From: a virus
Direction: 5' to 3' (one strand)
Virus record (IMG/VR): IMGVR_UViG_3300035517_000183
Coordinates: 1 to 64,000 of that record
DNA length: 64,000 bases
Positions 1-36,048 of this stretch are shown here, in pieces. The translations under genes were made by a program, and so were the position numbers. A model generated the notes under the pieces. The model was not told the origin of the DNA and ran no database searches. It saw nothing but the letters and a program-made list of their open reading frames with translations. Numbering within the stretch: position 1 is the stretch's first letter; every line of letters starts with the position of its first letter.

Positions 1-163
1 TATCTCAAAAAAGCAACATCAAAGCTGATGCGGTGATTGACTTTTACGATATTCGCCGATGTAACATACAGGGGGTGATTGATAAAATCTTTGAGTCGGT
101 TAAATAGCCGACTCACTCCCCCCCCCAATTAATCAAAAAAAACAACTCTAAATCAATACAACT

Positions 164-568
164 ATGTTATCAAAAAACTATGTTTTGCAGACAGCAAAAA
201 CCATACTTCAACAAATAGTCGCGGGTGTTGACAATATCAGTATCTTTTACTCGTGGGGTCCCTATAATTTCCGGCCGGTCGTGCAACATTGCATAATCGA
301 CGATAGTAATATTGACTTTGCCGGACTACGTTTTACGGTTAACGCTCGTGTATTCGTCGGCGATGTGGCAGTGATTTTAGATGACTGCAAAGACACGTAT
401 ATAGTCTATTTATACGGCCCCGACAACAGTAGCATTATACACAAAGTCGATGACGTCTACTGTGACGAGTTAGGCCGACTTATAGATGAGTTAGTGGAGT
501 ACCCGGCCGGGACTGACGCGGGCGAGTATCACCGGCAAGCTATTAACGACCTTATTACATCAATATGA
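164..568 (+). CDS. hypothetical protein
   Basis: 134-aa ORF preceded by a non-coding stretch; no recognisable motifs. Confidence 0.4.
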   Translation: MLSKNYVLQTAKTILQQIVAGVDNISIFYSWGPYNFRPVVQHCIIDDSNIDFAGLRFTVNARVFVGDVAVILDDCKDTYIVYLYGPDNSSIIHKVDDVYCDELGRLIDELVEYPAGTDAGEYHRQAINDLITSI

Positions 569-792
569 TTGGCAAAATTACATGGCTATTACATCTCGGT
601 GATGCGCTGACTAATTACGCTTATAGGGCGTTATTGGCCGGTGCAACCATTGACACAATACGCGATGTTATACGCGAGTCGTGGCGTGAGATAGCCTCAA
701 ATATGCACGATGACACAATACGCGATGTCATTATAGACGATGCGATTTTGGCCGCGAAAAAACGGTTTAAAAACGACGCGAAAAACAACTAA
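565..792 (+). CDS. hypothetical protein with internal duplication
   Basis: 75-aa ORF overlapping the previous stop. Contains a 17-bp direct repeat (gacacaatacgcgatgt at ~650 and ~710) encoding DTIRDVI twice. Confidence 0.35.
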   Translation: MIGKITWLLHLGDALTNYAYRALLAGATIDTIRDVIRESWREIASNMHDDTIRDVIIDDAILAAKKRFKNDAKNN

Positions 793-1023
793 AAACATTA
801 TATTTAACCCTCAAAAATCAAACAACTATGGCTATTATTATTGCAGCTTTTTTACTCGTTCCGTGGCTTATAGCGGCCGGACGCGACGGCGGACGTATGC
901 GATAGCGTATAACGCCCCTTAGGTAGGCTTAACCGATTTAATTAACCTTGACTCCTTAGGCAGTGGCGGTCTATATGGCTCCACTGCCGGGAGTCGTAAA
1001 GTCGTAAATTAGCAAAGAATAAA

Positions 1024-1914
1024 ATGAATAATCAAGGATATGTAATTGTGCCAAAATTCAACGACCTTTCGCCGGCGGCACGGTTGATAGTGTCTAAATT
1101 ACCGTCAGACTACACCATGTATAACGACTATCAAAAACTCGTGGAACAACTTGCGAGCGGTGGCAGTCCGGATGATGATTCGTTGTTACTGTTGCCGATG
1201 GAGATAGTGACACGATTAGTTAACGAACTCAACCGGCGCGACCCCGGAAAATACAGCGATGTGACTTTTACGGATATGTTTCAAGCGTCGTTATATTTGC
1301 GAGGGCAAATCATTGCGAAAATCGAAGAGCGCAAGAGTAAAACAAGGGACGAGGAAACGGCTCAAAAACGGCTTGAAATTTACAAGCAAATACAATCCGA
1401 ATACCCGCGATTGCGCGTTGTGAAAACATATAAGCGCGACGGCAAGCATTTAACCGACTTAAAATTAGCCTTGGTAGGCCTTGTCGATATGGCAGAGGCT
1501 AACGAAATATGCGAAAAATACGGCGTGTCACTCGTGGAATTGTGCAAGCGCAATAGTCATAAGTGTTACGAGCGACTACGCGATTGCACATTGTCAGGCA
1601 TTGATGTTGCAAGCATATTAGGTGACGGCTATATAGCGTATACCACTGAAAGTAGTGACGGTTACAGTTATTTTGATAAAATTTTCAAGCCGCGAATTGC
1701 AAGCATTGATAACATATACGACTTGACTAAAGCGGCGACGTATTGTGTTGATATAATATCCCACTTACAGTTATTGGATGATGACACGGTGTTTATAACT
1801 CAAATGTGTAATGGCAAATACGAGTTGGTAGTTGGGGAATACCCAAAACAAGCAGTCGAATTTAGCCATGGTGGCTATGACTACGCCGTAGGGATTATCG
1901 TAGACTTGTATTAG
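1024..1914 (+). CDS. hypothetical protein
   Basis: 296-aa ORF, no recognised motifs. Confidence 0.5.
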   Translation: MNNQGYVIVPKFNDLSPAARLIVSKLPSDYTMYNDYQKLVEQLASGGSPDDDSLLLLPMEIVTRLVNELNRRDPGKYSDVTFTDMFQASLYLRGQIIAKIEERKSKTRDEETAQKRLEIYKQIQSEYPRLRVVKTYKRDGKHLTDLKLALVGLVDMAEANEICEKYGVSLVELCKRNSHKCYERLRDCTLSGIDVASILGDGYIAYTTESSDGYSYFDKIFKPRIASIDNIYDLTKAATYCVDIISHLQLLDDDTVFITQMCNGKYELVVGEYPKQAVEFSHGGYDYAVGIIVDLY

Positions 1915-1943
1915 GTATTAATGGCTTATATAATTGATTAATC

Positions 1944-2699: not shown

Positions 2700-2775
2700 G
2701 CGATAATTTACTATCTTTGTGAGTAAGTTTTCAGCGCATGAAATATTGCGCATGAGTTTTTTAAGTTAGTTTTTA

Positions 2776-4883: not shown

Positions 4884-5066
4884 TTTGGGTTAATGTTATG
4901 TTTGGTGTTACAAATGTGTTTCAAATTTAGGGTCAAATTTTTTAGACGCAATTTAGACGCAATTGATATGGTCCAAATTTGGACAAAAAAATAAAACTGC
5001 GCCAAATATTTAACACAGTTTAACTTTTGTGATTTCCGTAACTTGTTGAAAATCAGCCTATTTAAG

Positions 5067-5097
5067 TGGAGCCACAACGGGGACTCGAACCCCGGAC
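5067..5097 (-). other. partial tRNA 3' end (T-arm + acceptor 3' strand + CCA) - candidate attP core
   Basis: Minus strand reads CGGGGTTCGAGTCCCCGTTGTGGCTCCA (canonical T-loop GTTCGAGTC, acceptor 3' strand, encoded CCA). No complementary 5' acceptor (GCCACAA) within 100 nt, so it is a fragment typical of phage att cores next to integrases. Confidence 0.5.
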
Positions 5098-5285
5098 TTT
5101 TTCGTTACGAATGAAAATATTTGCAAAAATAATGTGTTGAAAATCAGCTAATTACAAAGGAGCGAAAAATCAAGACGCAATTAAGGCGCAAGCAAGCTTT
5201 TGCGGAGCCAAATATTTTAGTTGCGTGTTTGAAAACTTATGTATATTTTTGCCGTAGATTCTTTGACAGTGTTGTTTGAAATACG

Positions 5286-6251
5286 ATGTTAGACAGCTAT
5301 CGAATTAGCGCATCGACAAAGGCCTCGGACTCGCGGAGTGATTTCTTCCAGTCAATTCTTTTCTTCATCGTTTCTCTTGCGAGTCCGGGTCTTTTTTTTC
5401 AAGCAGGGTTATTAAAGACAGTCGCAAATTTACAAACAATAATGACACTCCAGTCTAACAACAGTTTATATCTTTCAGCAGTAAAAGCGAGCGCAGCAGT
5501 TCAGAGCAAATCCGAATTGGACTGCCTCGCTTTTGCTATTATGGGTAAACTGTTATTCGGTTGTTCTGTCATGGTAAAATCAACGGCGCGACAATACAAG
5601 TATATGTTTCGGATGGGCACCGCGAGATTTAATCGCATTTTCCGCGACTGCCTCAACCGTGGATATATAACCGATTGCGGAAATCATTACATCTTTGTTC
5701 CCATAAAAGCGCAAAAAGCCCAAAATATGGTCGTTGAACTGCCAAACGCATGGGGGCGAAACAAAGATAAGCGTTCCGCAATTACTCTAAATCAAGCAAA
5801 AGACTACATTCGCAAAGTTGCACAGTACGACAAGTTTGCGAAAAAAGCAGTAGTAGAGAATGTAAGTACAACTATGGCAAATCCTAAGTCCCGCAAGGCT
5901 TATCGACGCGCTCAAAAAATCTCCAAACGTATCTCACACAACGCTTTTTTCGACGGTCTACGACGTGGAACTTCTATGTCGCGTGTAGCACGGAATATGA
6001 ACACCTACAAAGCGAAAGCACGTAAACTCGTCCGCGAGATGGTGAGTGACGGTTGGATAACAAACAAGCCTGTCACAATCAAAACGGACTTCGCGGAATC
6101 GCAGTTTACACCACAAGCACTCATCATGCTTAACCGCGAATATGGTTGGTGCGGGTCGTACTTTCATTTGGGGCACGATATATTCTGTCGAGTGGCAAAT
6201 ATTTATGAACTTAACGACGTGAGCAAACTTCGTTTTTTGAACACAAAATAA
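5286..6251 (+). CDS. hypothetical basic protein (start uncertain)
   Basis: 321-aa ORF; the N-terminal ~90 aa are low complexity and contain a T8 tract at 5392-5399, so the true start may be downstream. A TAttTTTG -7 element lies at 5244-5251. Confidence 0.4.
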   Translation: MLDSYRISASTKASDSRSDFFQSILFFIVSLASPGLFFQAGLLKTVANLQTIMTLQSNNSLYLSAVKASAAVQSKSELDCLAFAIMGKLLFGCSVMVKSTARQYKYMFRMGTARFNRIFRDCLNRGYITDCGNHYIFVPIKAQKAQNMVVELPNAWGRNKDKRSAITLNQAKDYIRKVAQYDKFAKKAVVENVSTTMANPKSRKAYRRAQKISKRISHNAFFDGLRRGTSMSRVARNMNTYKAKARKLVREMVSDGWITNKPVTIKTDFAESQFTPQALIMLNREYGWCGSYFHLGHDIFCRVANIYELNDVSKLRFLNTK

Positions 6252-6310
6252 TTTTTTTTAAGCCGTTATGTTCTCGTTTTCTCACACATATAGTAAACTA
6301 TGTAAGTAGT

Positions 6311-6817
6311 ATGGATAGTATTACATTAGGGGTTATAGGGGGAGGGCGATACCCACAGCATCAACCCGGCAGAGTAGCAAGAAAGAGAAAACCTACTAAA
6401 AGAGAGTTATTCTTTGATAATTTTGCCGACGAAATTGATATTTTCGACTCGCCGACATCTTACCCGGATTGGATTTTGCGCATTCGCGAAGAACAACTTG
6501 CCAAAATAACGCCATGTTTGCAAAATTTTTCCGCTCGGCTCAAGTCCTACGGCCTCAACTTCAAAATCAAACAGCCGTTATGTGTCGACGGCAAATACAA
6601 ATTTGCTGATATTTATCTTCCGGACATAAACACCGTACTGATGCAGACTTCCATGTACACAAATTTTCGGCCGGTCGGACTACTAAGCGAGCGAGCCGAG
6701 TCCTTCCGTCGTGATTTCACCGTCTACGAGTTTGACCCCATCGACACGGAAACCGTTACGGAGCGACTTATCGAACGACTTTTGCAGATGGCCGAACAAA
6801 AACCATGTAACAGTTAA
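6311..6817 (+). CDS. hypothetical protein
   Basis: 168-aa ORF. Confidence 0.45.
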   Translation: MDSITLGVIGGGRYPQHQPGRVARKRKPTKRELFFDNFADEIDIFDSPTSYPDWILRIREEQLAKITPCLQNFSARLKSYGLNFKIKQPLCVDGKYKFADIYLPDINTVLMQTSMYTNFRPVGLLSERAESFRRDFTVYEFDPIDTETVTERLIERLLQMAEQKPCNS

Positions 6818-7157
6818 TCAACGACACGACAAGCAGTACAGCCACTACGATACGCACTGCGCTTGTATCTACAATCGGATGTAATGCACGGCAAATTGGG
6901 AGCATAATCGGCAGCGTCATGACCAAGCATTGCGCCCTATGCCAATGGCACAGAGATACGAGTCGCGACAGTCGCCAACAAAGCCATGTTGTCGGCGCCG
7001 ACGTAAAAGCGAGCAAGCCTATAATCTCCGCGATTTCTATCGGCAAAACAGCCTCAACGGGCAGAACGGCAAGCGCAAAAGCCGAATACATGAACGGGAA
7101 CAATTTTACAGTGCGCGTAACCGCACGAAGAACGCCTACAAGTCTATTTTCCGTCAT
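6768..7157 (-). CDS. possible small membrane protein
   Basis: 129-aa strongly hydrophobic ORF filling an otherwise empty 326-bp gap between convergent genes. No other support. Confidence 0.25.
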   Translation of the reverse strand: MTENRLVGVLRAVTRTVKLFPFMYSAFALAVLPVEAVLPIEIAEIIGLLAFTSAPTTWLCWRLSRLVSLCHWHRAQCLVMTLPIMLPICRALHPIVDTSAVRIVVAVLLVVSLINCYMVFVRPSAKVVR

Positions 7158-7536
7158 TTATACACTGCAAGTAAGCAATTACGCTGTCAAGTCTATTTAT
7201 CAGCCAATCATCGTTAGAAGCGAGTTTAATTGACTCTAAAATCGACACAGCCTTATCCGGCGAATTACAAGCAAGCAAGCGGCGCGGTGGCTGACGGCGG
7301 TAAGTTTTATTTAAAATATCATTTGCAGCCTTGATTTTATAACCCTTGACTTTAGTTAGGTCTTTGATGGTATGTAGCAAGGCGACTTCATCCGCAGAGT
7401 AGTTACGCCAACAGCCACAACACACTTTCCGACCCTCTTTAAGCAGGTCGAATCTTTTCTCCCATGTGTAGAGCGTAGATTTAGGCACGTCAAGTAATTC
7501 AAGCACTTCAGCGGTGCGATAGTAAAGTTTACTCAT
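7144..7536 (-). CDS. MerR/excisionase-like HTH DNA-binding protein
   Basis: TAEVLELLDVPKSTLYTWEKR is an HTH_17/MerR-type helix. Confidence 0.55.
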   Translation of the reverse strand: MSKLYYRTAEVLELLDVPKSTLYTWEKRFDLLKEGRKVCCGCWRNYSADEVALLHTIKDLTKVKGYKIKAANDILNKTYRRQPPRRLLACNSPDKAVSILESIKLASNDDWLINRLDSVIAYLQCINDGK

Positions 7537-7906
7537 GGCCGAGTTTTGTGGCGGTCAGTTTTTCTACCATAGTAAGTAACCGGTTTACTTGTTCGGAGTA
7601 GGACTTATTTTGCGCTTCCAGCCGTGTAACAGAGTTTGCCAACTCGTCAGTGTAAGCGATAATGCCATCTGACTTTTGGCTTTCGTTGCTATTACTGTTA
7701 TTGTTACTCTCTTTGATTTCCTCACCATAGAAAAAGCCGATAGGTACGTTATACAACTTCGCGACTCGCTCAATCATTCCGCTTTTAACGTCGGCTGATT
7801 TGAACACTTGATTTAACGTCTGAGGCAACATTTCTAATTTCCTTGCAAGGTTTGCCGTAGTATGCTCTAATTCAGCTACTTTGGCTTTAAAATCCGGTCC
7901 AGTCAT
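7529..7906 (-). CDS. HTH protein, candidate repressor
   Basis: LARKLEMLPQTLNQVFKS... is HTH-like, with a C-terminal coiled-coil. Sits divergent from the + strand genes across a 254-bp region carrying operator-like palindromes. Confidence 0.5.
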   Translation of the reverse strand: MTGPDFKAKVAELEHTTANLARKLEMLPQTLNQVFKSADVKSGMIERVAKLYNVPIGFFYGEEIKESNNNSNSNESQKSDGIIAYTDELANSVTRLEAQNKSYSEQVNRLLTMVEKLTATKLGHE

Positions 7907-7993
7907 ATTGGTTATAAGTGTAAACTAAATTAAAGATAAGTTAAATTTGTGTTAATGCTAAGTGATAATGCTTGTTATGTGAGTACAACTACT

Positions 7994-8022
7994 TATATTT
8001 GCAGTGTCATTCAATGAACGAC
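7994..8022 (+). promoter_or_regulatory. Bacteroidota-type -7 promoter element (TAtaTTTG) followed by an operator-like palindrome
   Basis: tatatttg at 7994-8001, then tcaTTCAaTGAAcga at 8008-8022. A second copy TTCAgTGAAcga lies at 8131-8143. Confidence 0.3.
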
Positions 8023-8160
8023 ACCAAAACAGTAAGCGACGAGGAGTAGTAAAACGATTTTTACCACACTCATTTTCAAGACAAAGTTAACTATTCCTCT
8101 CGCTTTTTGCAAATTTTCAAACTGACAAATTCAGTGAACGAGAACAAATAAAAAGATTAT

Positions 8161-8385
8161 ATGCCATTAATGATTAAACAGATTGAAATGTTAACGCCGG
8201 GTCAAACCTTGACAACCTTTTGCCCTACACCGGGTAAATGGGAGTCAACCAAGCGCACGGCTTACAATGGCCGCAAGCGTCTACTGTCCGCGCAAGAAGA
8301 TAAAACTTGCACCATCAGTCAGGATGTTATAGCACGGACAGTAAGCGTAAGCGTGGAGTTAAACACAGAATCTGAAACAATCTAA
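8161..8385 (+). CDS. hypothetical protein
   Basis: 74-aa ORF, first gene of the rightward early operon. Confidence 0.35.
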   Translation: MPLMIKQIEMLTPGQTLTTFCPTPGKWESTKRTAYNGRKRLLSAQEDKTCTISQDVIARTVSVSVELNTESETI

Positions 8386-8401
8386 ACAAGCAGAAATAAC
8401 C

Positions 8402-8641
8402 ATGTCGAAAGGCAAGAAGCATACCGAGAATAAGGATTACGACTTAACAGCACTGCCCGCGGTACTGGCTAAGCACCAAATCCAATTCAGCAAGACCCAA
8501 TCCGCCAAATTAGTAGGCGGACGGACTCGACTCTACGAGTTGATAAAGCAAGGCAAGATACGGTGTGGGAAGCCAAGCGACTCTAAAAACGGTAAGTGGT
8601 ATTGTGATGCGAGCGATGTAATAGCATACGCAACACTCTAA
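8402..8641 (+). CDS. HTH (excisionase/AlpA-like) DNA-binding protein
   Basis: SKTQSAKLVGGRTRLYELIKQGKI is an HTH_17-like helix. Confidence 0.5.
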   Translation: MSKGKKHTENKDYDLTALPAVLAKHQIQFSKTQSAKLVGGRTRLYELIKQGKIRCGKPSDSKNGKWYCDASDVIAYATL

Positions 8642-9213
8642 GCAACTTGCAAAAAAAGCCAACGCCGAGAGGCTTAAAAATATCGGCGCAAAAGTGATGC
8701 AGCACTATATCTGCAACGTGAGTCACCCCGCGAAGTGAACGCCTGTCGGCAAGGACTAAATGCCGCGTTAAGCTCAACCGCTGATTATATTGGGCGGATT
8801 TACATAGAGCAAGGCGAGAGATACCCAGGCAAGCAGATACGTAGACTTGTCCGTTGAGAGCGCTGGGGTGAAGATGGAATGACTCTCCGAGGCCAAAAAC
8901 GAGTCATATTCCGCGAAATAGACTGCAAGGGTGAGGTACTGCCACGGCGGAAACAATATAAGCAAACCAACAAAAGCAACTCAATATGGTAGTTCACGTA
9001 GTGTAACATGGATAAGCACGATTTAGGTCAAAGTGTGTTAACGTATAAAAGTAGTGAATGAAAAAGGATACCGATTAGCCAAACGCTTAAATTAATGCCG
9101 GTTCAATTCCGGCCGTGAACACAACCCCATCGCACTGTCATTGCGTTTCGATTATTATGTTATTTAGTTTAGGGTTTCAATGTTATGTGATATATAGCGA
9201 TGTGCGATGGGAT

Positions 9214-9289
9214 AGGTGGTTAATTTAATGGTAGAATGTCGGTGATTAGCAAGCTGATAGTGTCAGTTCGAGTCTGATACCACCAACCA
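9214..9289 (+). tRNA. tRNA-like element (canonical T-arm, acceptor stem, encoded CCA; atypical D/anticodon arms)
   Basis: T-stem GTCAG/CTGAT around T-loop TTCGAGT. Acceptor AGGTGGT/ACCACCA (6 bp), discriminator A, then CCA encoded. D-arm ATTT/GAAT. The anticodon arm only folds with a 9-nt loop (GATTAGCAA), so function is uncertain. Confidence 0.4.
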
Positions 9290-9319
9290 ATAATTTTTCA
9301 ACTAAATACTTAAATCAAA

Positions 9320-9622
9320 ATGGAAAAAGACAACAACATTGGCAAAAAAGTAATTGTCCGCGGTACCAACTCGGGCGTGTTCTTTGGGACTCTCTCCGAG
9401 CATGACGGTCAAGCGGTGACTCTTACAAACTGTCGCCGCCTATGGTATTGGGATGGCGCCGCTTCGGATTTTCAACTGGCTGTTGATGGCGTAAAAGCAC
9501 CGGCAAACTGCAAGTTTACAGTCACAGTAGCGCATATTGAAATCCTCGACGCAATAGAAATTATCCCCTGTACGGATAAAGCAGTTGAATCAATTGAATC
9601 GGTAGCCAAATGGGCAAGATAG
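9320..9622 (+). CDS. hypothetical protein
   Basis: 100-aa ORF, translationally coupled to the next gene. Confidence 0.45.
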   Translation: MEKDNNIGKKVIVRGTNSGVFFGTLSEHDGQAVTLTNCRRLWYWDGAASDFQLAVDGVKAPANCKFTVTVAHIEILDAIEIIPCTDKAVESIESVAKWAR

Positions 9623-10416
9623 AAGATTTTCTAAACATTAGCTCTGGCTCCGGCTCTGGCTATGGCTCTGGCTCCGGCTCTGGCTCTGGCGATGGCTCTG
9701 GCTCTGACTATGGCTCTGGCTCCGGCTCTGGCTATGGCTCTGGCTCCGGCTCTGGCTCTGGCGATGGCTCTGGCTCTGACTATGGCTCTGGCTCTGGCTC
9801 TGGCTCTGGCTCTGACTATGGCTATGGCGATGGCTCTGGCGATGGCTATGGCTCTGACTATGGCTATGGCTCCGGCTCTGGCTCTGGCGATGGCTCTGGC
9901 TCTGACTATGGCTATGGCTCCGGCTCTGGCTCTGGCTATGGCTTAAAATCTATAAATCACAAGCGCATATATAGGATAGACGGATGTCAAACTATTGTCG
10001 AGTCGGTTCATGGAAATCTCGCCAAAGGATATATTGTGCGGGATAATTTAACGCTCAAAGAGTGCTATATTGCTAAAGGCGAGAACTACTTTGCTCACGG
10101 ATATACAGCACACGAGGCGTTAAGTGCGCTTCGAGATAAGATTTTCAATCAACTGCCGATTGAAACTCGCATTGAAAAATTTAAGGCCGAATACCCCGAT
10201 TTTAACGCCAAAATCCCTGCCAAAGAGTTATTTGATTGGCACCACAGATTAACAGGCAGCTGTAAGGCCGGACGCATGGAATTTGTTCGACGGCATGACA
10301 TTGACCTCGACAAAGATAAGTTCACGGTCAACGAGTTTATCTCGCTTACATGTAACGACTATGGTGGTGATATCATCCAACAACTAAGTCAGAGTGATTA
10401 TGAAAACATTACTTAA
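9610..10416 (+). CDS. Gly/Ser/Tyr/Asp-repeat protein (disordered GSGSGY/GSGSGD array + C-terminal globular domain)
   Basis: N-terminal ~110 aa are tandem GSGSG(Y/D) units; C-terminal ~150 aa are non-repetitive. Confidence 0.55.
   Translation: MGKIEDFLNISSGSGSGYGSGSGSGSGDGSGSDYGSGSGSGYGSGSGSGSGDGSGSDYGSGSGSGSGSDYGYGDGSGDGYGSDYGYGSGSGSGDGSGSDYGYGSGSGSGYGLKSINHKRIYRIDGCQTIVESVHGNLAKGYIVRDNLTLKECYIAKGENYFAHGYTAHEALSALRDKIFNQLPIETRIEKFKAEYPDFNAKIPAKELFDWHHRLTGSCKAGRMEFVRRHDIDLDKDKFTVNEFISLTCNDYGGDIIQQLSQSDYENIT
9640..9940 (+). repeat. tandem hexanucleotide array (ggctct/ggctcc/ggctat/ggcgat), ~50 units
   Basis: Directly visible in the sequence. The mirror-frame ORF MALAPALALA is an artefact of this repeat. 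Confidence 0.85.
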
Positions 10417-10612
10417 TTACAGATATTATGTACTCGCAATTTTGTTGGGTGCAGCAATATTTTTTATATGTTGTGACAGCGACAGCGAGCTTTCATTTTG
10501 GTTGTCAAAGGTAGTTGGCATTATCGTAGCTTCCGCCTTTGTTTCGCTGTTTAAGTTTTGGTCGTCGAAAGACCAAATCCCCGCCCTCACAGATTTAGAC
10601 GATAATATTTGA
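10394..10612 (+). CDS. small membrane protein
   Basis: 72-aa ORF with two hydrophobic helices. Confidence 0.4.
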   Translation: MIMKTLLNYRYYVLAILLGAAIFFICCDSDSELSFWLSKVVGIIVASAFVSLFKFWSSKDQIPALTDLDDNI

Positions 10613-10613
10613 C

Positions 10614-11579
10614 ATGATTAAAGATACCATTTTAGACCTGTCCAACGAAGATTACCACAACGCGGCACCATACAACGAGTATTTAAGCTCCACGCAACTT
10701 AAATACTACGCTAAATCGCCGAAAGTGGCAAAATATATGCTGGATAACCCGCAACAAGAAAAGAGTGACGCAATGCAAGTTGGGTCACTCTTCCATTTAG
10801 CAATGGAGTTATATAAAAAGCATGGCTCGATTGATGCGTTCTACGACTCGGTGGCGATATTTATGCCACCGAAGAATCCAAAAACGGCGCAGCCTTACGG
10901 GACAACAACAAAAGCATACCAAGATGCACTGTGCAGTTTCAAAGAGTTAAACCCAAGTAAAAGCGTTGTCACCTACGAACTTGCAACCATGATTGACGAT
11001 ATGGTTGGAGTTTTAGTTAATAATGCAAGCGACACTTCCAAGCAGGTTAACAAGCTACTCCAGTGGGGTACTTCCGAAGTCAGCCACTTTGTTGAATACA
11101 AGGACTGTAAATTTAAGTATCGACCCGACCTTGAAACCAAGCAGAAGATTATCGACTGGAAAACCGTTAACACCGACGATTTAAGCGAGAAATCAATCAA
11201 TAGCATTATTTCCAAGTATGGCTACGACATAAGTGCAGCGTTCTATTTATTCATGGAACATCTCCGCACGGGAATATGGAAAACTTTCTACTGGTGTTTC
11301 GTTAGCAAGGCAATGCCTTACGACGCTGTTTTAGTCGACGCTTCGCGATGGACTTACGAGCATGACGGCGCAGATGTTGTAATGCCGCAGGTTGGGGCGA
11401 TAAAAATGAAGTCCTTGCTTGATTTACACGTCAAGTGTAGCAATGAACGTCAGTGGCCGGGTGCGGAAATCTATATACCGCAAGACCAGCATGGCCGACG
11501 CATCATGACGCCTACACCCCCACAATGGGAAATCTCGCAAGCGTCTGCAATAATTGACTTATTAGATATAGAACAATAA
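10614..11579 (+). CDS. PD-(D/E)XK family exonuclease (YqaJ/RecB-like)
   Basis: IIDWKTV matches the hhhDYKT nuclease motif. It sits immediately upstream of RecT, the classic exo + annealase pair. Confidence 0.6.
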   Translation: MIKDTILDLSNEDYHNAAPYNEYLSSTQLKYYAKSPKVAKYMLDNPQQEKSDAMQVGSLFHLAMELYKKHGSIDAFYDSVAIFMPPKNPKTAQPYGTTTKAYQDALCSFKELNPSKSVVTYELATMIDDMVGVLVNNASDTSKQVNKLLQWGTSEVSHFVEYKDCKFKYRPDLETKQKIIDWKTVNTDDLSEKSINSIISKYGYDISAAFYLFMEHLRTGIWKTFYWCFVSKAMPYDAVLVDASRWTYEHDGADVVMPQVGAIKMKSLLDLHVKCSNERQWPGAEIYIPQDQHGRRIMTPTPPQWEISQASAIIDLLDIEQ

Positions 11580-11582
11580 ACG

Positions 11583-12482
11583 ATGGAAACTGAAAATCAG
11601 CAAACAACAGAACAGCAGCCGACGCAAGCGCAAACGACTGTCATAGAGAAGAAAGAAACTTATACGCCCGAGCGAACAGCCGAAGCGATTAAAAAACTCC
11701 CGACGATTTTGCAGCCGATAAAAGGCTTGTTTGCTCAACCGTGGGAGTCATTCCGCAGTGCGTTTAAAGACCCCGCCGAAGCAGACCGCATAATGCAGCG
11801 CGAAGTGACGTATGCAGCACAAGCAATGACGAGTAACGGTTATTTAATAACTTGCGCTCAAAAATCGCCGCAACATTTCGTCGAAGCACTCAAAAACGTA
11901 GCACTGTCGGGGCTGTCACTTTCGCCGGTTTTAAAACAAGGCTACCTCGTACCGTTTAACGGCCTTGTATCATTCATACCCTCTTACATGGGTTTGATTG
12001 ACATACTCGTTAACGCCGGAATTGTCGCCAAAATAGAAGCACATTGTGTTTATAAGGGCGAGAATTACGAAATCTGTCACGGCACGGAAGAATATTTGCG
12101 ACACAATCCTAATTGGGAGAATCGCACGAAAGAAAATCTCGTAGGGTGCTACTGGATAGCTACGTTGTTAGATGGCACGAAAGTATTCGGCGACCTCTCG
12201 ATTGATGAAATCGAAGTCATTAGAAAACGTGCGCCGTCAGCAAAAAACAAATCTCCGTGGGATAGCGATTACACCGAAATGGCGCGTAAAACAGCCGTCC
12301 GACGTGGATTTAAAATGCTACCGAAGAAAGGAATCTCCGAGGATAAACTTAAATCGGTAGAAGCCGTTTTTGACTACGACGAGAAAGTTGTACAGTCATG
12401 GATTAAAAACCAAAAACAAGGTACTACCAAAAATGACTCGTTTGACGAAGATGAAACAGCAGATTATGAAGTAGTAGAATGA
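11583..12482 (+). CDS. recT: RecT-family single-strand annealing protein
   Basis: MARKTAVRRGFKMLP matches the RecT signature K-A-RR-K-LP. Size 299 aa and the position after the exonuclease fit. Confidence 0.7.
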   Translation: METENQQTTEQQPTQAQTTVIEKKETYTPERTAEAIKKLPTILQPIKGLFAQPWESFRSAFKDPAEADRIMQREVTYAAQAMTSNGYLITCAQKSPQHFVEALKNVALSGLSLSPVLKQGYLVPFNGLVSFIPSYMGLIDILVNAGIVAKIEAHCVYKGENYEICHGTEEYLRHNPNWENRTKENLVGCYWIATLLDGTKVFGDLSIDEIEVIRKRAPSAKNKSPWDSDYTEMARKTAVRRGFKMLPKKGISEDKLKSVEAVFDYDEKVVQSWIKNQKQGTTKNDSFDEDETADYEVVE

Positions 12483-12581
12483 GTTTTTCATAGTTTTCAT
12501 GTAACAGGTTTACAATAGATTTTTCATTTATAACACTTAGTTAGTTTCTCCCCGGCAGTTCGTGAGAATAGTCGGTCTTTC

Positions 12582-12767
12582 TTGTTTAATATGATTACCG
12601 AAAACGACAAACAACTAATACATAAAGCGTGGGCGATGCACCACTCCCAATGGGATGTTGTGTTGACCCTTGCAACGCAAACAGATACCGCCGAGGCTAA
12701 ACAACAAATAGTCGACATAGCCAGAATTAAGTATCATACTGACCAAGTGTACAACGACGAAACATAA
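12582..12767 (+). CDS. hypothetical protein
   Basis: 61-aa ORF on the operon strand; the opposite-strand alternative is less plausible. Confidence 0.3.
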   Translation: MFNMITENDKQLIHKAWAMHHSQWDVVLTLATQTDTAEAKQQIVDIARIKYHTDQVYNDET

Positions 12768-12912
12768 GCAATGGAAATCTCAAAAACCGACCTTCAAAAA
12801 GTCATTGCGTATCTTGATGATGCAGCAAGACTTTACGCAGCACTGCCGATGCAGAAATGCAAGTGCCGTGCCCACATGATAACTATGTTAATAGTCAAAC
12901 TTAAAAAGAGCC

Positions 12913-13557
12913 ATGACACCGGTAAATAGTATGTTCCAAATGCGAAAGCAGACGCATACACTCGCAGATGTACCACAAATGGAACTATATAAGATGGCGG
13001 TTAAGCAATATTTTTTAGGCGCGTTAGCGTGGGATTATGCCGATACGGTCAACGACTTAGCGGCCTCAATGAGGCTCGACGGCACTAAAAAAATATCGCG
13101 AGCGGTTAATAACTTACGCCGTGAATATAACAGCGTCCGAAGTTTAGACCTTGACGCCAAACACCGCGATAAAGAGTGGGAACTCGCACAGTTATTTGAG
13201 TCTATAAACAAGCAACATTTAAGCCGACTATATACGAGCCTCTGTAACGAGATACGGCGCGACCACACGAAACTCACCGACGAATATGTAACGCTCGTCG
13301 CCTCTACTTACGTTGCCTTGACGGTATTAGACACTGTAATGTTGTTTGCCCGTCAGTGTGACAGATATATCGAAATATACTACCCCGAAGCACCTCACAG
13401 CATATTGCCAGACCACTTTGTGCAGCTCGCCAAACTACTACCATTGTTTGCGGGTGATATATATAATCCAAATATGCAAGCGAGGACGCTGACGGCTAAA
13501 ATCCTACTTAACGAAGTAAACAGAATAGAACTATTTGACGAAGATGGAAAACAGTAA
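12913..13557 (+). CDS. hypothetical protein
   Basis: 214-aa ORF. Confidence 0.45.
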   Translation: MTPVNSMFQMRKQTHTLADVPQMELYKMAVKQYFLGALAWDYADTVNDLAASMRLDGTKKISRAVNNLRREYNSVRSLDLDAKHRDKEWELAQLFESINKQHLSRLYTSLCNEIRRDHTKLTDEYVTLVASTYVALTVLDTVMLFARQCDRYIEIYYPEAPHSILPDHFVQLAKLLPLFAGDIYNPNMQARTLTAKILLNEVNRIELFDEDGKQ

Positions 13558-13771
13558 TCCGATAATCCCTGAATCTTCAATCATTGAAATGATTAAAGAA
13601 ATCCAAGATGCGAAGCGAGCGAGTAAACAAGCTCCCGACTACGCTTCGATAATAGAGATTGAGAACTCGCTCAAAGTCGAGTTGAAAGAAACACTTAACA
13701 AACTTGTCAGCAAAGGCGCGGTTAAGTGGTTCAAGACACTCAACGGAACTCCAATGTTTAGTGCGACATGA
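13535..13771 (+). CDS. hypothetical protein
   Basis: 78-aa ORF overlapping neighbours. Confidence 0.4.
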   Translation: MTKMENSNPIIPESSIIEMIKEIQDAKRASKQAPDYASIIEIENSLKVELKETLNKLVSKGAVKWFKTLNGTPMFSAT

Positions 13772-14478
13772 AAAGTATAACACTGCCGATTGAAACTGTG
13801 AATGCCGGGCTTTTCCGCAAGCCTGAATACTTAGGACTTTGGATTAAACTCATAGCAACAGCAGACGACAACGGCGAAATCACCCGGCCAATTAGACGGC
13901 TTGCGGACGATTTAGATACGACTTATCAGAAGCTCCGCGACCTGCTTAACTACCTTGCCTCAACGCAACAAATAACGCAAGTGTATAACGCAAAAGCAAC
14001 GCAAATAACTATCTGTAACTATGAAAGTTACGAGGGGTCGCGCCGCAAAGATAACGCAACAAATAACGCAAGTCAAAAACGCAAAACTACCGACAAAAGT
14101 TCAAGTAATACTTTAAGTTTAGAACTACCACAAAAAACAACGCGCTTCATTCCTCCTACCCTTGATGAACTCCGCTCGTATATCCAACTGAAAGGCTACA
14201 ACGTAGACCCCGAAAAATTCTTAGCCTACTACGAGAGTAACGGCTGGATGGTCGGACGCAACAAGATGAAAAACTGGCGGAGTGCGCTTGTCACGTGGAA
14301 CAGAAGCCAATATGGAAAACCTTACAACTCACCAAGACCGCCACAAGGCCATTATTCGCGAATTAGAGATGCAGCCGCAGCATTGCTTCAATGTAATGGA
14401 AGTGTCAACACCTCAAATTATGATACGAGCGCACACGCCGACTTTGTGGGAACTGAAAGTGAAGATTGGCGACGTTAA
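13768..14478 (+). CDS. hypothetical protein (possible replication/DNA-binding role)
   Basis: 236-aa ORF in the replication/recombination module; N-terminal region is HTH-like. The functional call is only an inference. Confidence 0.3.
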   Translation: MKSITLPIETVNAGLFRKPEYLGLWIKLIATADDNGEITRPIRRLADDLDTTYQKLRDLLNYLASTQQITQVYNAKATQITICNYESYEGSRRKDNATNNASQKRKTTDKSSSNTLSLELPQKTTRFIPPTLDELRSYIQLKGYNVDPEKFLAYYESNGWMVGRNKMKNWRSALVTWNRSQYGKPYNSPRPPQGHYSRIRDAAAALLQCNGSVNTSNYDTSAHADFVGTESEDWRR

Positions 14479-14998
14479 AACCAAGGCAATAATAATTTAC
14501 GCGATTGCATGGATGGCTGAATTAGTCAACGTCGACAGAAACCTGACAGAGCCTCAAATACTCGAATTATCCAGCGACATTTTACGCGACTACGGTTATA
14601 TCAAAGTCGAAGAACTAAAGTACATACTCAAACGCGGAGTCAAGTCAAAAATATACGCACGACTCGACTACAACGTAGTGATGAATTGGTTTAAAGACTA
14701 CGATAACGAGCGCACCGAGATTGCGATGGATATTTCAGACCAAGAATCCTCACAACAAGAAAACGATATAACAGTTGCGCCCGACAGCATAACATGGGGT
14801 CAGTATTTAGAGCGACTTCAACGGCTCTCACAACAGGGCGATGCAACAGCCACAGCGCGACTCGATGAAATCAACAATCCACCACAACAAAAACTAACAC
14901 TTATCACAAACGAACAGCGACACCAACGCGATGTCGCTTTCAAAACATGGTATTACAGAGAATACCTAAGACGCAAAAATGGAACAGACCAAGAGTAG
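14420..14998 (+). CDS. hypothetical protein (start ambiguous: 14282/14396/14420/14513)
   Basis: The track ORF begins at 14282, overlapping the upstream gene by ~200 nt in another frame. 14420 limits the overlap to <60 nt. Confidence 0.35.
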   Translation: MIRAHTPTLWELKVKIGDVKTKAIIIYAIAWMAELVNVDRNLTEPQILELSSDILRDYGYIKVEELKYILKRGVKSKIYARLDYNVVMNWFKDYDNERTEIAMDISDQESSQQENDITVAPDSITWGQYLERLQRLSQQGDATATARLDEINNPPQQKLTLITNEQRHQRDVAFKTWYYREYLRRKNGTDQE

Positions 14999-15185
14999 AG
15001 TCAGAAAGAAATCGGTAAAGCCTTGTTTGGGCTTTCAATTTTCTAAAGCAGATGAAATAAAAATCAAACTCGCTTGCATTTCCGCTCGCAATTTCATGCG
15101 CAACTACGGCAAAGGCAAACGAATGCAAATGGTAGATTTAAGACATTACTGTAACACAATTAACGAATTAGATTATGCAAATTAA
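14979..15185 (+). CDS. hypothetical protein
   Basis: 68-aa basic ORF. Confidence 0.3.
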   Translation: MEQTKSRVRKKSVKPCLGFQFSKADEIKIKLACISARNFMRNYGKGKRMQMVDLRHYCNTINELDYAN

Positions 15186-16862: not shown

Positions 16863-16941
16863 ACCATATTTTCAGAGGGTGGGGGTAATTTCGCTCCCGC
16901 CCTTTTCTCGCTAAACAATCAATCAACCAATATAAACAGAC

Positions 16942-20277: not shown

Positions 20278-21016
20278 GCTCGTAACCTTGTTTTCGGGCT
20301 ACGACTCGCAAGCACTTGCAATGCAACGGCTTAAAAATAATTTCCCCGACGACTTTGATTTTGAACTCGTTGCGTGGTGCGAAGTCGATGCAGCGGCGAT
20401 TAAGGCTCATGATGCGCTGTTTCCTCAATGGAAAGACCGAAACTTAGGCGACATAACAAAGGTTAATCCCGCCGACGTCCCAGACTGCGACTGTATTACA
20501 TGGTCGTTCCCTTGCCAAGCAATTTCAACGGCGGGACAGCAGAAAGGCATGAAATCGGGCAGCGGTACAACATCATCGCTCGCATGGGAGTGCATCAAGA
20601 TTTTTAAGGCGAAGCGACCGAAATATCTACTCATGGAAAACGTCGCAGCGATAACGCACAGGCAATTCAAGTCTGACTTTGCCGAACTCCGCGAAACAAT
20701 AGCACAATTAGGCTATCGAAACTATTATCAGTTACTCAACGCAAAGGACTACGGAGTGCCACAAAATAGGCTACGTTGTTTCATGGTATCAGTCCGCGAC
20801 GATGGCGACAACCCAAGTTACACGTTCCCCGAGCCGATTAACAGTACGGTCGACTCGAAAGATGTAAGGGCGTTGTTAGAACCTGCGGAAGATGTTGACG
20901 AAAGCCAGTACATAGCCACTTTGCGAGTCACCGAAGATTCGTTGCTTGAAATCTTAGAGCAACCGGGCGTTTACGAGCAATTATTACAAGTGTACTACAT
21001 GGAAAACAACCGATAA
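20258..21016 (+). CDS. DNA cytosine-5 methyltransferase, N-terminal part (motifs I-VIII + start of the target recognition domain, TRD)
   Basis: LFSGYDS (motif I), FPCQAIS (PCQ, motif IV), ENV (VI), QNRLRCFMV (VIII). Ends with tandem stops TAA TGA. Confidence 0.8.
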   Translation: MAVNHCRLVTLFSGYDSQALAMQRLKNNFPDDFDFELVAWCEVDAAAIKAHDALFPQWKDRNLGDITKVNPADVPDCDCITWSFPCQAISTAGQQKGMKSGSGTTSSLAWECIKIFKAKRPKYLLMENVAAITHRQFKSDFAELRETIAQLGYRNYYQLLNAKDYGVPQNRLRCFMVSVRDDGDNPSYTFPEPINSTVDSKDVRALLEPAEDVDESQYIATLRVTEDSLLEILEQPGVYEQLLQVYYMENNR

Positions 21017-21052
21017 TGACAACACAGATACCTATAAACCTAACGAAAGGTA

Positions 21053-21280
21053 ATGATAAAACAGATACCAATAAATCTTTGTCGCGGAGTCAGTTGCATC
21101 GTAAGGGCAAATCCGGGTGTACAATCCGCTTACAACTTACTGACTGCCCCCCCCCAGATTCCGACAAACAGCCGTTCTGTGTGTAGATGTATCACGGCGC
21201 ATTATGCCAAATTCGGTTACAGCGAAATATTCGGGCGATACCTACCCCCCCCCGCAGTCCTAACTATTAAGAGTAGATAA
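21053..21280 (+). CDS. spacer ORF between the methyltransferase halves; both C9 tracts encode PPP
   Basis: 75-aa ORF in the same frame as the upstream methyltransferase ORF. Its stop overlaps the ATG of the downstream ORF (TAATG). Coding status uncertain. Confidence 0.25.
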   Translation: MIKQIPINLCRGVSCIVRANPGVQSAYNLLTAPPQIPTNSRSVCRCITAHYAKFGYSEIFGRYLPPPAVLTIKSR

Positions 21281-21828
21281 TGGCAAACGACATTTTTCCT
21301 ACGCCGATACATAAACTACGCTCGCAGCAATTAAAAGAACTCCGTAAGATGGGCGTTGAGAAATTCGGCAGAAGATTATTAGTACCGCGGTTTGACGGTG
21401 TATGCGGCACCATTACGGCAACTCAAACAGACAGTTTAATCATGGAACTCAAAGAACGAACAGACTCAAATAACTATGCCGGACAGCCGACCAAACAAGA
21501 GTTAATAGCCTACTTCGGCGACCGATTGCGAGTGCGCAAATTCACTCCCACGGAAGCCTTTAGGCTGATGGACTTAACTGATGCGGATATTGAGAAAATA
21601 CAAGCCTACCCATTTGCTACTATGGCGGAGCGCAAAGCGGTACTCTCGCAACTTTCTGAAAACTCTCCCGAGCGGCGCAAAATTACACGCGACAGTATTT
21701 GCAAGACGCAGCAATACCACCTTGCGGGCAATTCAATCGTTGTCAGTTGCTTGTATTACATCTTTAAGAGTATGTATATAGCGCAATCGGGTCAAGAGTC
21801 ACACCAACAGTTAACTCTTAGCCTATGA
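21280..21828 (+). CDS. DNA cytosine-5 methyltransferase, C-terminal part (TRD remainder + motifs IX-X)
   Basis: RKFTPTEAFRLMDLTD (motif IX) and HLAGNSIVVSCLYYIF (motif X). Confidence 0.7.
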   Translation: MANDIFPTPIHKLRSQQLKELRKMGVEKFGRRLLVPRFDGVCGTITATQTDSLIMELKERTDSNNYAGQPTKQELIAYFGDRLRVRKFTPTEAFRLMDLTDADIEKIQAYPFATMAERKAVLSQLSENSPERRKITRDSICKTQQYHLAGNSIVVSCLYYIFKSMYIAQSGQESHQQLTLSL

Positions 21829-25931: not shown

Positions 25932-25932
25932 A

Positions 25933-33806: not shown

Positions 33807-33815
33807 GCTATATTT

Positions 33816-34256: not shown

Positions 34257-34273
34257 AGGCTTATATTTGAAGG

Positions 34274-34669
34274 TTAAAACACTTGTCGACGGTTGCGCTT
34301 CGGGTCATAACTGACGTGTACCCAGCCGTACTTGTATTTCGCGCTGATAAGTTGGTCGTAAGGCAGTTTCAGTCGCTGTATTAACTCGTACAGAGCTTTG
34401 TTTTGTGCTGCCGTACCAACTGTAATGTCGGCCGCTTGTCCGCTCATGTGCTGTGAGCCGACAGCACCACCGACAGCCGTGTTGAGTCGGTTGCTGCGGT
34501 ACCCCGAAGTAACTGTTATCGGTCTGCCGTAGGCACTGCGCAGCGGGTCAAGGATATTTTCGACCAACGCTTTAAGGTTTGCCACGGCGATAGCGTCGGG
34601 AGTGTTGTCTATCCCCTTTCGCTGTGCCGTGTCGCTCACCGTGAGTTCGTCCAATGTAAAGTATTTCAT
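34274..34669 (-). CDS. endolysin, peptidase M15 (L-Ala-D-Glu / D-Ala-D-Ala peptidase family)
   Basis: SGYRS...SQHMSGQAADI...GWVHVSY carries the Zn ligands H, D, H of the M15/VanY fold; 131 aa. Confidence 0.75.
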   Translation of the reverse strand: MKYFTLDELTVSDTAQRKGIDNTPDAIAVANLKALVENILDPLRSAYGRPITVTSGYRSNRLNTAVGGAVGSQHMSGQAADITVGTAAQNKALYELIQRLKLPYDQLISAKYKYGWVHVSYDPKRNRRQVF

Positions 34670-34710
34670 AGGCTTATATTTGGGTAGTAATTACCTTTTT
34701 GTGACTCGCG

Positions 34711-35103
34711 TTATTGCGCAACGCTGTCCGATTGCGGCACTTGCGGCATTTCATATCCGCCGGCCGTGCCATCAATGAGATTCTGTTTAGCAGTAACTTT
34801 ACATTCATCAATATAAGCAAGATACTCCTTGTATTTCTCACCCGCTGAATCTTGCTCTCTCGCGAATTGAATCTCTTGTCCCGTGGAATATTTCAAGGCT
34901 ATAAGCCTCTCCACTTCTTTGTCGTACTGTGCTTTATTATAAGCAGGTTTTTCAGATGCATCGACTTCCGCCCAGTTGTCAACTTCTTCTGCCTTAATTG
35001 CAATTTCAGTCACCCAACTGTCGTTAATGCTGTTATACAGCACTTTACCATCATCGGCCTTAATGCTTAAAAACTTGCCATTATTAAATTCTCTTTGTTT
35101 CAT
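34711..35103 (-). CDS. hypothetical protein
   Basis: 130-aa ORF. Confidence 0.4.
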   Translation of the reverse strand: MKQREFNNGKFLSIKADDGKVLYNSINDSWVTEIAIKAEEVDNWAEVDASEKPAYNKAQYDKEVERLIALKYSTGQEIQFAREQDSAGEKYKEYLAYIDECKVTAKQNLIDGTAGGYEMPQVPQSDSVAQ

Positions 35104-35107
35104 TCTG

Positions 35108-35896
35108 TTATTCTTTACTAAATGTTATATTCTTCTCTGCCGCCGATTCCACCAATGCGAGCCATTGCGTCCTTTCATCTTCCGTTAGTGCTGCTGCTGC
35201 TGTGTTGTCATAGTCGCCCGTCAGTTTCGCGTAGACGTCGGCATGAACTACTACCTCACCCGTCGTAACGGTCTTGCTTTGCGCGATAAGTCTATATAAG
35301 CTGCCATACGATAATTCATCCGCAGACTTTAAATTAATTCCCGTATTTGCGTCCCATAAATTAAGCCCATACAATTCTTTAAGTCCACGTGCATACATTA
35401 AACCGCCAAAGTCCTTTTTTAGGTTTTTAAAACCGTTTAAAGCGTTTATGAAACATATTGTATGGCATTTATTGAAGCAAAACGACCACAAACCATAATT
35501 ACCTTCACCTGGTATTATCGCAGTTTCAAGATTTGCTCCATTAAAAGGAGCATACAATTCCATATTAGTTACCCAGCCCCCCACACCTGCGAGCATATTT
35601 GTTCTAATGTTGTCGTTGCCATAATAGCCGCAATATGACACATTGGCTGTCCCAAACCATAAAATAGATAGCATATCTTGCTCTGTCAGGTCTGTCAAGC
35701 CGTTCAGTTCAAAATACCCGGTCGCAGGATTATAATATGGATTGTTTCCACGATAATACCACCATGAGGGCAAATACTGGCTATTATAACCTAAAAAATA
35801 AGGTCGTTTCGGTAAACGGTCCATCAATAGCTTAGGTTCAACCCACGCAGCGTCATGCGCTTCCAGTTTCTCTCGTTCTTCGGCGGTCACTTCCAT
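35108..35896 (-). CDS. tail-fibre tip-like protein, paralogue of the 36049-37590 C-terminal domain
   Basis: Shares TGYFELNGLTD, VVHADVYAKLT and a C-terminal NITF motif with the adjacent fibre gene. Confidence 0.5.
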   Translation of the reverse strand: MEVTAEEREKLEAHDAAWVEPKLLMDRLPKRPYFLGYNSQYLPSWWYYRGNNPYYNPATGYFELNGLTDLTEQDMLSILWFGTANVSYCGYYGNDNIRTNMLAGVGGWVTNMELYAPFNGANLETAIIPGEGNYGLWSFCFNKCHTICFINALNGFKNLKKDFGGLMYARGLKELYGLNLWDANTGINLKSADELSYGSLYRLIAQSKTVTTGEVVVHADVYAKLTGDYDNTAAAALTEDERTQWLALVESAAEKNITFSKE

Positions 35897-36048
35897 AAAG
35901 TCAGACTCAGACTCCGTTTTGGTTAAAACTTTGCGCGTGTAAAATTGGTGGAAATTTGTGGGGTAGGATTGCGTGAGATACCCCCCCCATCGGTGTAAAG
36001 CTCTGTGTATGAGCCTATTGTGCGTGATAATATTGCCATGATAATAAT

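Follow-up and report, generated by a model that had tools for sequence, protein, structure and literature searches.

Poly-G and poly-C tracts of a temperate Bacteroidales phage as candidate contingency loci, with the firmest case in a tail-fibre tip gene

The presence of five long G/C homopolymers in a single phage genome raises a question: do such tracts serve as contingency loci, at which slipped-strand changes in length switch genes, or did they come about in some other way? The genome at issue is the IMG/VR virus record IMGVR_UViG_3300035517_000183, of which positions 1 to 64,000 were analysed (this whole stretch of 64,000 nucleotides (nt) is called the window below). It belongs to a temperate, siphovirus-like tailed phage of Bacteroidales. 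One tract lies in a gene for a tail-fibre tip protein, two in the region of a C5 DNA methyltransferase, one in a ParB/Srx-like gene and one between genes. A preliminary description of this DNA had listed the five, estimated that well below one would be expected in 64 kb, and read their placement as the hallmark of slipped-strand phase variation. All five were found, the last of them at 35981-35988, one base away from the 35980-35987 given earlier. Taken together, the five would in our view form a contingency-locus system of real, selected simple-sequence repeats, with a probability of about 0.72.

The estimate of their rarity also held. Exactly five G/C homopolymers of at least 8 bases occur in the window (44.4% GC), and the only other G/C runs of at least 6 bases are two C6, so that the length distribution is bimodal. 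Under Markov models of order 0-3, 0.14-0.59 runs of at least 8 bases are expected against the five observed (Poisson P <=4e-4), and 0.03-0.13 runs of at least 9 bases against four observed (P <=1e-5). For an empirical comparison, unrelated viral loci were scanned; 80 of them, 660 kb in all, hold four G/C runs of 8 and none longer, or 0.006 per kb. All five tracts are of slippable length (about 7 or more G/C); four are in open reading frames (ORFs) and one is intergenic.

The tract in the tip gene carries most of the argument. The gene follows that of a putative tail fibre of 513 amino acids (aa), whose stop codon lies 9 nt before the tip gene's ATG at 36039, and the C-terminal ~210 aa of the tip protein are paralogous to the C-terminus of that fibre. 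The same order of fibre and tip genes recurs in the comparison loci L006-L012 and L118-L126. From this position and paralogy, we regard receptor binding by the tip protein as a putative function. A fold model (pLDDT 74) had no significant match in the PDB, only weak leucine-rich-repeat-like ones.

The G8 had been described as lying upstream of the tip paralogue. It instead falls within the true coding sequence, which is frameshifted in the assembly. With a tract of G9 (or G6), the frame that opens at ATG 36039 runs through the tract into a 262-aa ORF (35108-35896 in the assembly). At G8, the state of the window, that frame stops after 38 aa (36039-35923), leaving the 262-aa ORF from its ATG at 35896; at G7 or G10, an ORF of 293/294 aa begins at an ATG that abuts the tract. 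Start codons are thus present in all three frames around it. Databases yielded only one close relative of the corrected N-terminus; this protein, P0121, is 47% identical to it, in one frame and continuously across the tract (..TELYTDGGGYLTQSYPTNFH.. in the window vs. ..TEIYVGGGNFMTESEPTYFH.. in P0121), and because of this alignment we conclude that the tract interrupts a real coding sequence. The DNA of P0121 has G9 at the same position.

How general is this tract? A panel of 49 tip loci was assembled, comprising the window, six loci from IMG/VR, nine from GTDB genomes, six from ENA/Logan (L006 and five others) and 27 from metagenomes. A poly-G occupies the same tip codon in all 49, with lengths from G6 to G16, over a range of locus GC content of 40-58% and of N-terminal protein identity to the window of 31-61%. 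GGG is the rarest glycine codon in the window (10.3%). Relative to the conserved start, the tract puts the gene out of frame in 8 of the first 17 loci and in about 14-16 of the 27 metagenome loci; in these "OFF" copies, the flanking codons on both sides nevertheless stay open and conserved. The longest tract, G16, is at 417-432 of L218 (Logan contig ERR11569025). L006 has another G8, at 1206-1213, near the end of a tip ORF of 195 aa where relatives have about 290-310 aa; it may be a second, truncating tract.

A homopolymer miscall or two-colour poly-G might in principle have made or mis-sized such tracts. Several platforms make errors in runs of 8-9 bases, the G8 of the window lacks one base of the in-frame G9, and there are only two assemblies of this phage, possibly from the same reads. 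The second, a Logan assembly of SRR11794475, is base-identical to the window over all shared parts, including all five tracts, and the two possibly represent one sample; exact-protein look-ups for other copies of the phage returned one Logan contig only, identical to the window. Against an artefact, all tracts but the one in the tip gene are either intergenic or exactly in frame, two-colour errors take the form of long terminal poly-G rather than internal in-frame 9-mers, control phage loci from similar data are without such runs, and a miscall can alter the length of a tract but cannot create a conserved one. We consider this explanation extremely improbable for the set, and reject it on the ground that the tip tract is conserved in 49 independent assemblies (from IMG/VR, ENA, Logan and GTDB, including an isolate).

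Length variation between close relatives was then the more telling property. A viral contig (L011) and a prophage in the cultured Bacteroidales isolate C34_57_MI_BP (L122, in CAJTEX010000001.1) share 6,694 bp with no substitutions and two indels. Both indels are length differences in poly-G, one in each of two tandem tip genes (G9 vs. G7 and G7 vs. G8). Two tandem tip genes, each with its own tract, are also present in L215. Other differences in the tip tract are G8 in L214 vs. G9 in L216/L217 (96.8% identical), G8 in L010 vs. G9 in the closely related L009/L012, and G9 in L221 vs. G8 in L230, whose flanks are the same. Public gene calls within one lineage include full-length tip products along with truncated or alternative-start ones. 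Because tract lengths differ between otherwise identical genomes, slippage at the DNA level is certain at tip tracts.

These data bear on a rival view, namely that the runs are programmed sites of transcriptional slippage or frameshifting, at which one DNA length yields mixed products (for example, a long and a short tip). About half of the genomes, including the isolate prophage, carry an OFF length, and both tandem tips of L011/L122 are OFF; such states would be easier to tolerate if slippage by RNA polymerase rescued expression, and starts in all three frames around the window's tract would suit a mixture of products. Nine-base runs are known slippage sites of bacterial RNA polymerase, established for A/T runs. 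The DNA tract lengths themselves, however, vary among genomes that are otherwise identical. Both mechanisms could operate side by side, and recoding at the RNA level as the explanation of the runs appears improbable to us.

A further view holds that the runs are neutral by-products of Gly-Gly-Gly or Pro-Pro-Pro codons, that is, fragile sites in decaying accessory genes. That many tip copies are out of frame is in keeping with it. The tract is nonetheless kept at one codon in 49/49 loci, at 31-61% protein identity and in the rarest glycine codon, with open and conserved flanks in the OFF copies; since it is kept at one codon across such divergence, neither decay nor miscalling accounts for it. 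The window also has almost no runs of 6-7 bases, and locally, as described below for methyltransferase genes, runs of at least 8 bases are enriched 60-fold. Neutral decay is accordingly a quite improbable account of the tracts in our estimation. The window's tip tract, judged from these comparisons of sequence, is very probably a slipped-strand contingency locus.

The two C9 tracts at 21147-21155 and 21245-21253 had been placed between two halves of a C5 methyltransferase. Their position is as described, but they do not lie in a spacer: the 264 nt between the ORFs here called alpha and beta are occupied by a 75-aa ORF in which both tracts are in frame (at APPQ and LPPPA) and whose TAA overlaps the ATG of beta (TAATG). 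Nor do the "halves" appear to be fragments. By prediction, they are a naturally split alpha/beta C5 enzyme like that of Dulem virus 40, which has the same split and a 373-aa beta with about six recognition modules in one frame. The 75-aa ORF has homologues in the N-terminal part of the Dulem virus 40 beta (MIPIN..CAKTLLAHYHKAGG) and in modules of L114 and L128. By motif and by this homology, the window has three recognition-domain-like modules, two of them on the 75-aa ORF.

An alternative, that slippage would rejoin a broken methyltransferase, was rejected. All nine combinations of C8-C10 at the two tracts leave three separate ORFs, and because none of them rejoins the pieces, we prefer a naturally split enzyme to a broken gene. 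Slippage at the C9s affects nothing but the content and length of the 75-aa ORF and the coincidence of its end with the beta start. An imperfect 28-nt direct repeat doubles the stop/start junction together with the "QIPIN" codons, providing alternative starts at 21016 and 21053 in different frames. Directly upstream of the ParB/Srx-like gene, 16942-19134 (plus strand) encodes a 730-aa protein in which an SNF2-type helicase is fused to an N6/N4 DNA methyltransferase; this gene and those of the split C5 enzyme make up a cluster of DNA-modification genes.

Do related methyltransferases have such tracts? Among 80 IMG/VR loci with alpha homologues, tracts of at least 8 bases number 0.37 per kb in the methyltransferase regions, 0.035 in their flanks and 0.006 in the control loci, an enrichment of about 60-fold over the controls. 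The recognition-module array of L132 holds 14 tracts within 2.7 kb, that of L133 nine. Tract lengths are polymorphic in L161, L162, L170, L168 and L169, and differences in length are seen between relatives as close as 97-98% identical. Within the group L161/L162/L170/L168 (95-98% identical), an alpha tract of G8 is in frame and one of G9 or G10 is out of frame; at a second tract, G7 vs. G8 determines whether alpha ends or gains two more modules. Every methyltransferase part is in frame in L168. Over 7.8 kb aligned between L161 and L162, the alpha tract is the only net frame-changing indel, and a C10/C8 difference lies just beyond the end of the alignment. In L114, lengthening of a G7 tract to G8 would join the middle ORF with the C-terminal one.

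For the methyltransferase genes, neutral decay has more in its favour: the arrays of L128, L132 and L133 are broken into many short ORFs, some of whose junctions have no tract, the window's 75-aa ORF is joined to alpha or beta at none of the tract lengths, and a GGG motif is natural in the recognition domains of C5 methyltransferases. The enrichment and the length polymorphism set out above provide good support, at the level of the family, for assigning the window's C9s to a recurrent and variable feature of these enzymes. That the window's own two tracts are contingency loci seems to us probable, with appreciably more reserve than for the tip.

Several features of these relatives merit separate mention. 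A poly-C at ~7828, about 3.8 kb downstream of the alpha match, is C10 in L161, C8 in L162, C7 in L163 and C10 in L170. The alpha homologue at 1702-3552 of L132 (= L134; IMGVR_UViG_3300031867_000067) has an intein-like insertion of ~380 aa in catalytic motif IV (..STPC[FVAGSLV...IVNGCMVKN]CQSISAAG..), and downstream of it the array has about 15 recognition-type modules in mixed frames, among which the 14 G/C tracts are distributed. At 2665-3822 of L133 (IMGVR_UViG_2885358051_000002), a single ORF encodes a circularly permuted C5 methyltransferase, with motifs IX/X before motif I; it is followed by an array of recognition modules that is fragmented and whose tracts reach G11. A G14 is found at 5375-5388 of L172, in a methyltransferase array.

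The G9 in the ParB/Srx-like gene was confirmed to lie inside the coding sequence, where it encodes Gly45-Gly47 in frame. Homologues have K/R-G-Q there at the same spacing, and because the G9 is in frame at this position, the gene is taken to be ON. A G8 or G10 would truncate the protein to 72 or 64 aa. From codon usage, 0.008 GGG-GGG-GGG tripeptides encoded by a G9 are expected. The DGQHRL motif is invariant among the homologues. The model of the protein (pLDDT 87) has as its top PDB matches the ParB N-domain 5k5a and the sulfiredoxins 3cyi and 1xw3, all weak (E = 0.1-0.4); Pfam gave no match for the window's protein and a weak one to GmrSD_N for two homologues. On the basis of codon usage, this tract is a plausible contingency locus, and we propose it tentatively.

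The intergenic C9 is flanked by a DUF7192 gene, whose stop codon (105-107) precedes it by 11 nt, and by a 134-aa ORF, whose ATG (164) follows it by 38 nt; no possible length of the tract alters any ORF. The perfect hairpin noted next to it in the preliminary description is present. In a scan that uses sigma-70 promoters, and is therefore unsuited to Bacteroidota promoters, the hairpin resembled a terminator on the minus strand only; an Rfam scan around the tract returned nothing. The tract may influence expression of the downstream gene. That it is a contingency locus, we think unlikely.

By what route would the tracts act? In the mechanism that we propose, a G/C run of 8-9 bases would gain or lose a base at high frequency during replication and so shift the downstream frame. 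At the tip gene, some virions in a phage population would then have an alternative receptor-binding tip and others not, or the tip would differ among them at its N-terminus; such a mix could amount to bet-hedging against variable host surfaces. In the methyltransferase, the two C9s flank a recognition module in an ORF that would be translationally coupled to beta; slippage would change which modules are made and whether a ribosome ending the 75-aa ORF reaches the beta start, and either effect could vary the specificity or the level of the methylation that protects the phage from restriction. In the ParB/Srx-like gene, a one-base change would leave a protein of 64-72 aa.

Several observations weigh against this interpretation of the five tracts. 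The receptor-binding role of the tip is read from position and paralogy, its fold search having been uninformative. The sole two assemblies of the window's phage are identical and may share one sample. Both tip genes of L011 and of L122 are out of frame in both copies, and these genes could be dispensable or decaying rather than switching. None of the C8-C10 combinations joins the three methyltransferase ORFs, and alpha plus beta may work regardless of the 75-aa ORF, which is possibly vestigial. At the position of the ParB-like G9, a tract was found in 0/18 aligned homologues and 0/80 viral loci, and the nearest homologue, 43% identical, has K/R-G-Q there. For neither gene flanking the intergenic C9 did viral or metagenome contigs yield a relative, and nothing supports a function for that tract. 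The proposal of phase variation in the preliminary description therefore fares unevenly: it is strongly borne out at the tip (49/49 loci, about half OFF, near-identical pairs that differ in length), borne out at the family level for the methyltransferase (~60-fold enrichment), and met at the ParB-like gene by codon usage only.

A broader proposal would extend contingency loci from the window to a wide, so far undescribed gut/rumen group of Bacteroidales-type phages, in which G/C homopolymers would be a general means of diversification on two levels, tips and methyltransferase module arrays. On the first level, a poly-G that stays at codon ~18 in one or two stand-alone tip genes would toggle alternative receptor-binding tips, and on the second, slippage among up to 14 tracts would pick which of ~15 modules join the catalytic parts. 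The outcome would be a combinatorial, phase-variable methylation specificity set against host restriction. In the window this system would be small, with three modules and two tracts. We offer this as a speculative possibility, somewhat less probable than its converse.

The setting in which these tracts occur can be compared with known systems. The window is nearly the entire phage, which the Logan assembly indicates to be a circle of about 64,810 bp. It encodes a tyrosine integrase with Bacteroidota-type domains (Phage_int_SAM_5, Arm-DNA-bind_5), a serine recombinase, RecT, an exonuclease, terminase, portal, major capsid protein and tape measure. Its fibre module has relatives in prophages of Muribaculaceae, Sangeribacter, Barnesiella, Porphyromonadaceae and other Bacteroidales, one of them in the cultured isolate named above (MGBC000159). 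Slipped-strand phase variation had been called unusual for a temperate tailed phage; among the related temperate Bacteroidales phages, such tracts are the rule.

The closest parallel is provided by Campylobacter phages of the genus Fletchervirus, in which hypermutable polyG tracts are described in receptor-binding protein genes (Sorensen et al. 2021, Cell Rep 35:109214, as presented in PMC12633550, PMC10877375 and PMC12823448). Common to both are G runs of about 7-11 bases inside receptor-binding or tail-fibre genes, frame slippage that makes a population mixed for binding proteins (proposed here), and the possibility of more than one such gene per genome (here in L011/L122 and L215). The likeness, which on our side comes from comparing genomes, is one of tract and of putative gene role. 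Fletchervirus phages are virulent myoviruses whose Campylobacter host is itself polyG-rich, whereas the present family consists of temperate, siphovirus-like Bacteroidales prophages: the window has an integrase and prophage relatives, and megablast of it against phage records gave no DNA-level match. Here, moreover, the tract keeps to one conserved codon (about 17-20), and the gene that holds it is a small stand-alone one for a tip that is paralogous to the fibre's C-terminus.

Homopolymer contingency loci have also been reported in T2/T4 and other coliphages (Gomez, Barrick & Waters 2025 preprint, PMC12633550). Shared features are homopolymers in phage genes and, as proposed here, reversible frameshifts and heterogeneous populations, with DNA-modification genes among those affected (agt in T2). 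The coliphage study concerns mostly short runs (>=6) of any base, with repeats depleted in tail-fibre genes (PMC12633550); the tracts described here are long (8-9 bases, and up to 16 in relatives), of G/C only, over-represented, and concentrated in fibre-tip and methyltransferase genes. For the Bordetella phage BPP-1, a polyG in a methylase gene is mentioned as not studied further (Liu et al. 2004, as cited in PMC12633550). It too is a homopolymeric G tract in a phage-encoded DNA methyltransferase gene, but a single one in a different enzyme, whereas the window has two in the recognition-module region of a split C5 enzyme and its relatives have up to 14 per array.

Split and multispecific C5 methyltransferases are themselves familiar, the former from M.AquI alpha/beta and the latter from the enzymes of the Bacillus phages SPR, phi3T and rho11s with their tandem recognition domains. 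As in M.AquI, the sequence of the window has motifs I-VIII and IX-X on adjacent, separate ORFs that are split in the variable region; as in the SPR/phi3T/rho11s enzymes, there are several tandem recognition-domain-like modules. The free-standing 75-aa recognition-module ORF between alpha and beta sets the window apart from both, and we know of no report of homopolymer tracts or slippage variation in enzymes of either type. Phasevarions offer a looser analogy. They are chromosomal Type III N6-adenine mod genes with repeats, present in Haemophilus, Neisseria, Helicobacter and Moraxella, and they regulate host genes. Repeat-mediated ON/OFF switching of a DNA methyltransferase, proposed here, would be common to both; the window's enzyme differs in being a phage-borne orphan C5 enzyme, presumably anti-restriction, with tracts in the specificity region and not only at the 5' end.

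Full-text searches of the literature turned up no account of tracts like these in phages of Bacteroidales or in multi-domain C5 enzymes. In 2025, a study of gut prophages by long-read sequencing named polyG as a possible determinant of host range, citing the Campylobacter work only (PMC12823448). The mechanism is thus already known; what appears to be new is the clade of hosts, the temperate way of life, a tract fixed in place within a stand-alone tip gene, and methyltransferase arrays studded with tracts.

Gut Bacteroidales vary their surfaces mainly by invertible promoters, and phase variation in this order is known mainly through DNA inversion; their phages answer with diversity-generating retroelements and invertible fibre segments. 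The present data point to a third phage mechanism, slippage at a conserved poly-G, which appears to be routine in the fibre-tip genes of a widespread family of prophages in Muribaculaceae, Barnesiella and Porphyromonadaceae and to touch DNA methyltransferases as well. A switch at the tip tract would bring to temperate phages of the gut a device so far shown mainly in Campylobacter phages. There are practical consequences also. Consensus assemblies would often display as "frameshifted" fibre or methyltransferase genes what are switch states, and annotation pipelines will truncate such genes or label them pseudogenes. Single lysogens may release mixed virions that differ in host range and in methylation-based protection, which bears on the coexistence of phages and hosts in the gut and on the design of phage therapy. 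As a related prophage sits in a cultured isolate, switching is testable.

Table 1. Positions in the window of the homopolymer tracts and of the genes and repeats associated with them.
Feature	Position	Strand	Remarks
Perfect 7-bp hairpin gagtcgg/ccgactc	93-114		Loop holds the upstream gene's stop codon, 105-107
C9 tract	118-126	+	Intergenic
ParB/Srx-like protein, 277 aa	19159-19992	+	DGQHRL motif; predicted N-terminal ParB/Srx-like fold; helical C-terminal domain; phrog_5931, function unknown
G9 tract	19291-19299	+	In ParB/Srx-like gene
C5 methyltransferase alpha, motifs I-VIII	20258-21016	+	Pfam DNA_methylase PF00145, E = 1e-46, profile 2-208 of 324; phrog_116
Imperfect 28-nt direct repeat	21014-21041 and 21051-21078	+	TAATGA..ACAGATACC.ATAAA.CT; read directly from the sequence
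75-aa ORF	21053-21280	+	Two target-recognition-domain-like modules (..GVSCIVRAN.., ..IPTN..CRCITAHYAKFGYSEIF..)
C9 tract	21147-21155	+	Between the two recognition modules of the 75-aa ORF
C9 tract	21245-21253	+	After the second recognition module; 27 nt before the 75-aa ORF stop/beta start
C5 methyltransferase beta	21280-21828	+	Recognition module GVCGTITATQTDS, motif IX FTPTEAFRLMDL, motif X AGNSIVV
Tail-fibre tip paralogue	35108-36039	-	310 aa from ATG 36039 when the tract is G9
C8 tract (G8 on coding strand)	35981-35988	-	Codons 18-20 of the tail-fibre tip paralogue
Putative tail fibre, 513 aa	36049-37590	-	Coiled-coil N-terminus; C-terminal domain common with the tip paralogue

A comparison by eye of the flanks of the tracts revealed no common motif of the kind expected for a target site or a mobile-element scar. 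The Logan contig spans 18505 round the circle to 4965, without 4966-18504. One of its breaks, just past the integrase gene, may correspond to attP or to a junction of the integrated with the free form; the second falls within the SNF2/N6-methyltransferase gene. A tRNA gene (Rfam RF00005, 39 bits) is located at 9214-9286 on the plus strand, in the early/recombination region. The large terminase (50036-52822, plus strand; 928 aa) has a LAGLIDADG_3 homing-endonuclease domain at residues 288-357, between terminase-like segments, and probably carries an intein. Finally, A8, A9 and T8 runs cluster at 61034-61095, in the part of the window with the lowest GC content (39.5% at 60-62 kb) and between divergent gene blocks; this cluster may be a regulatory or origin region.

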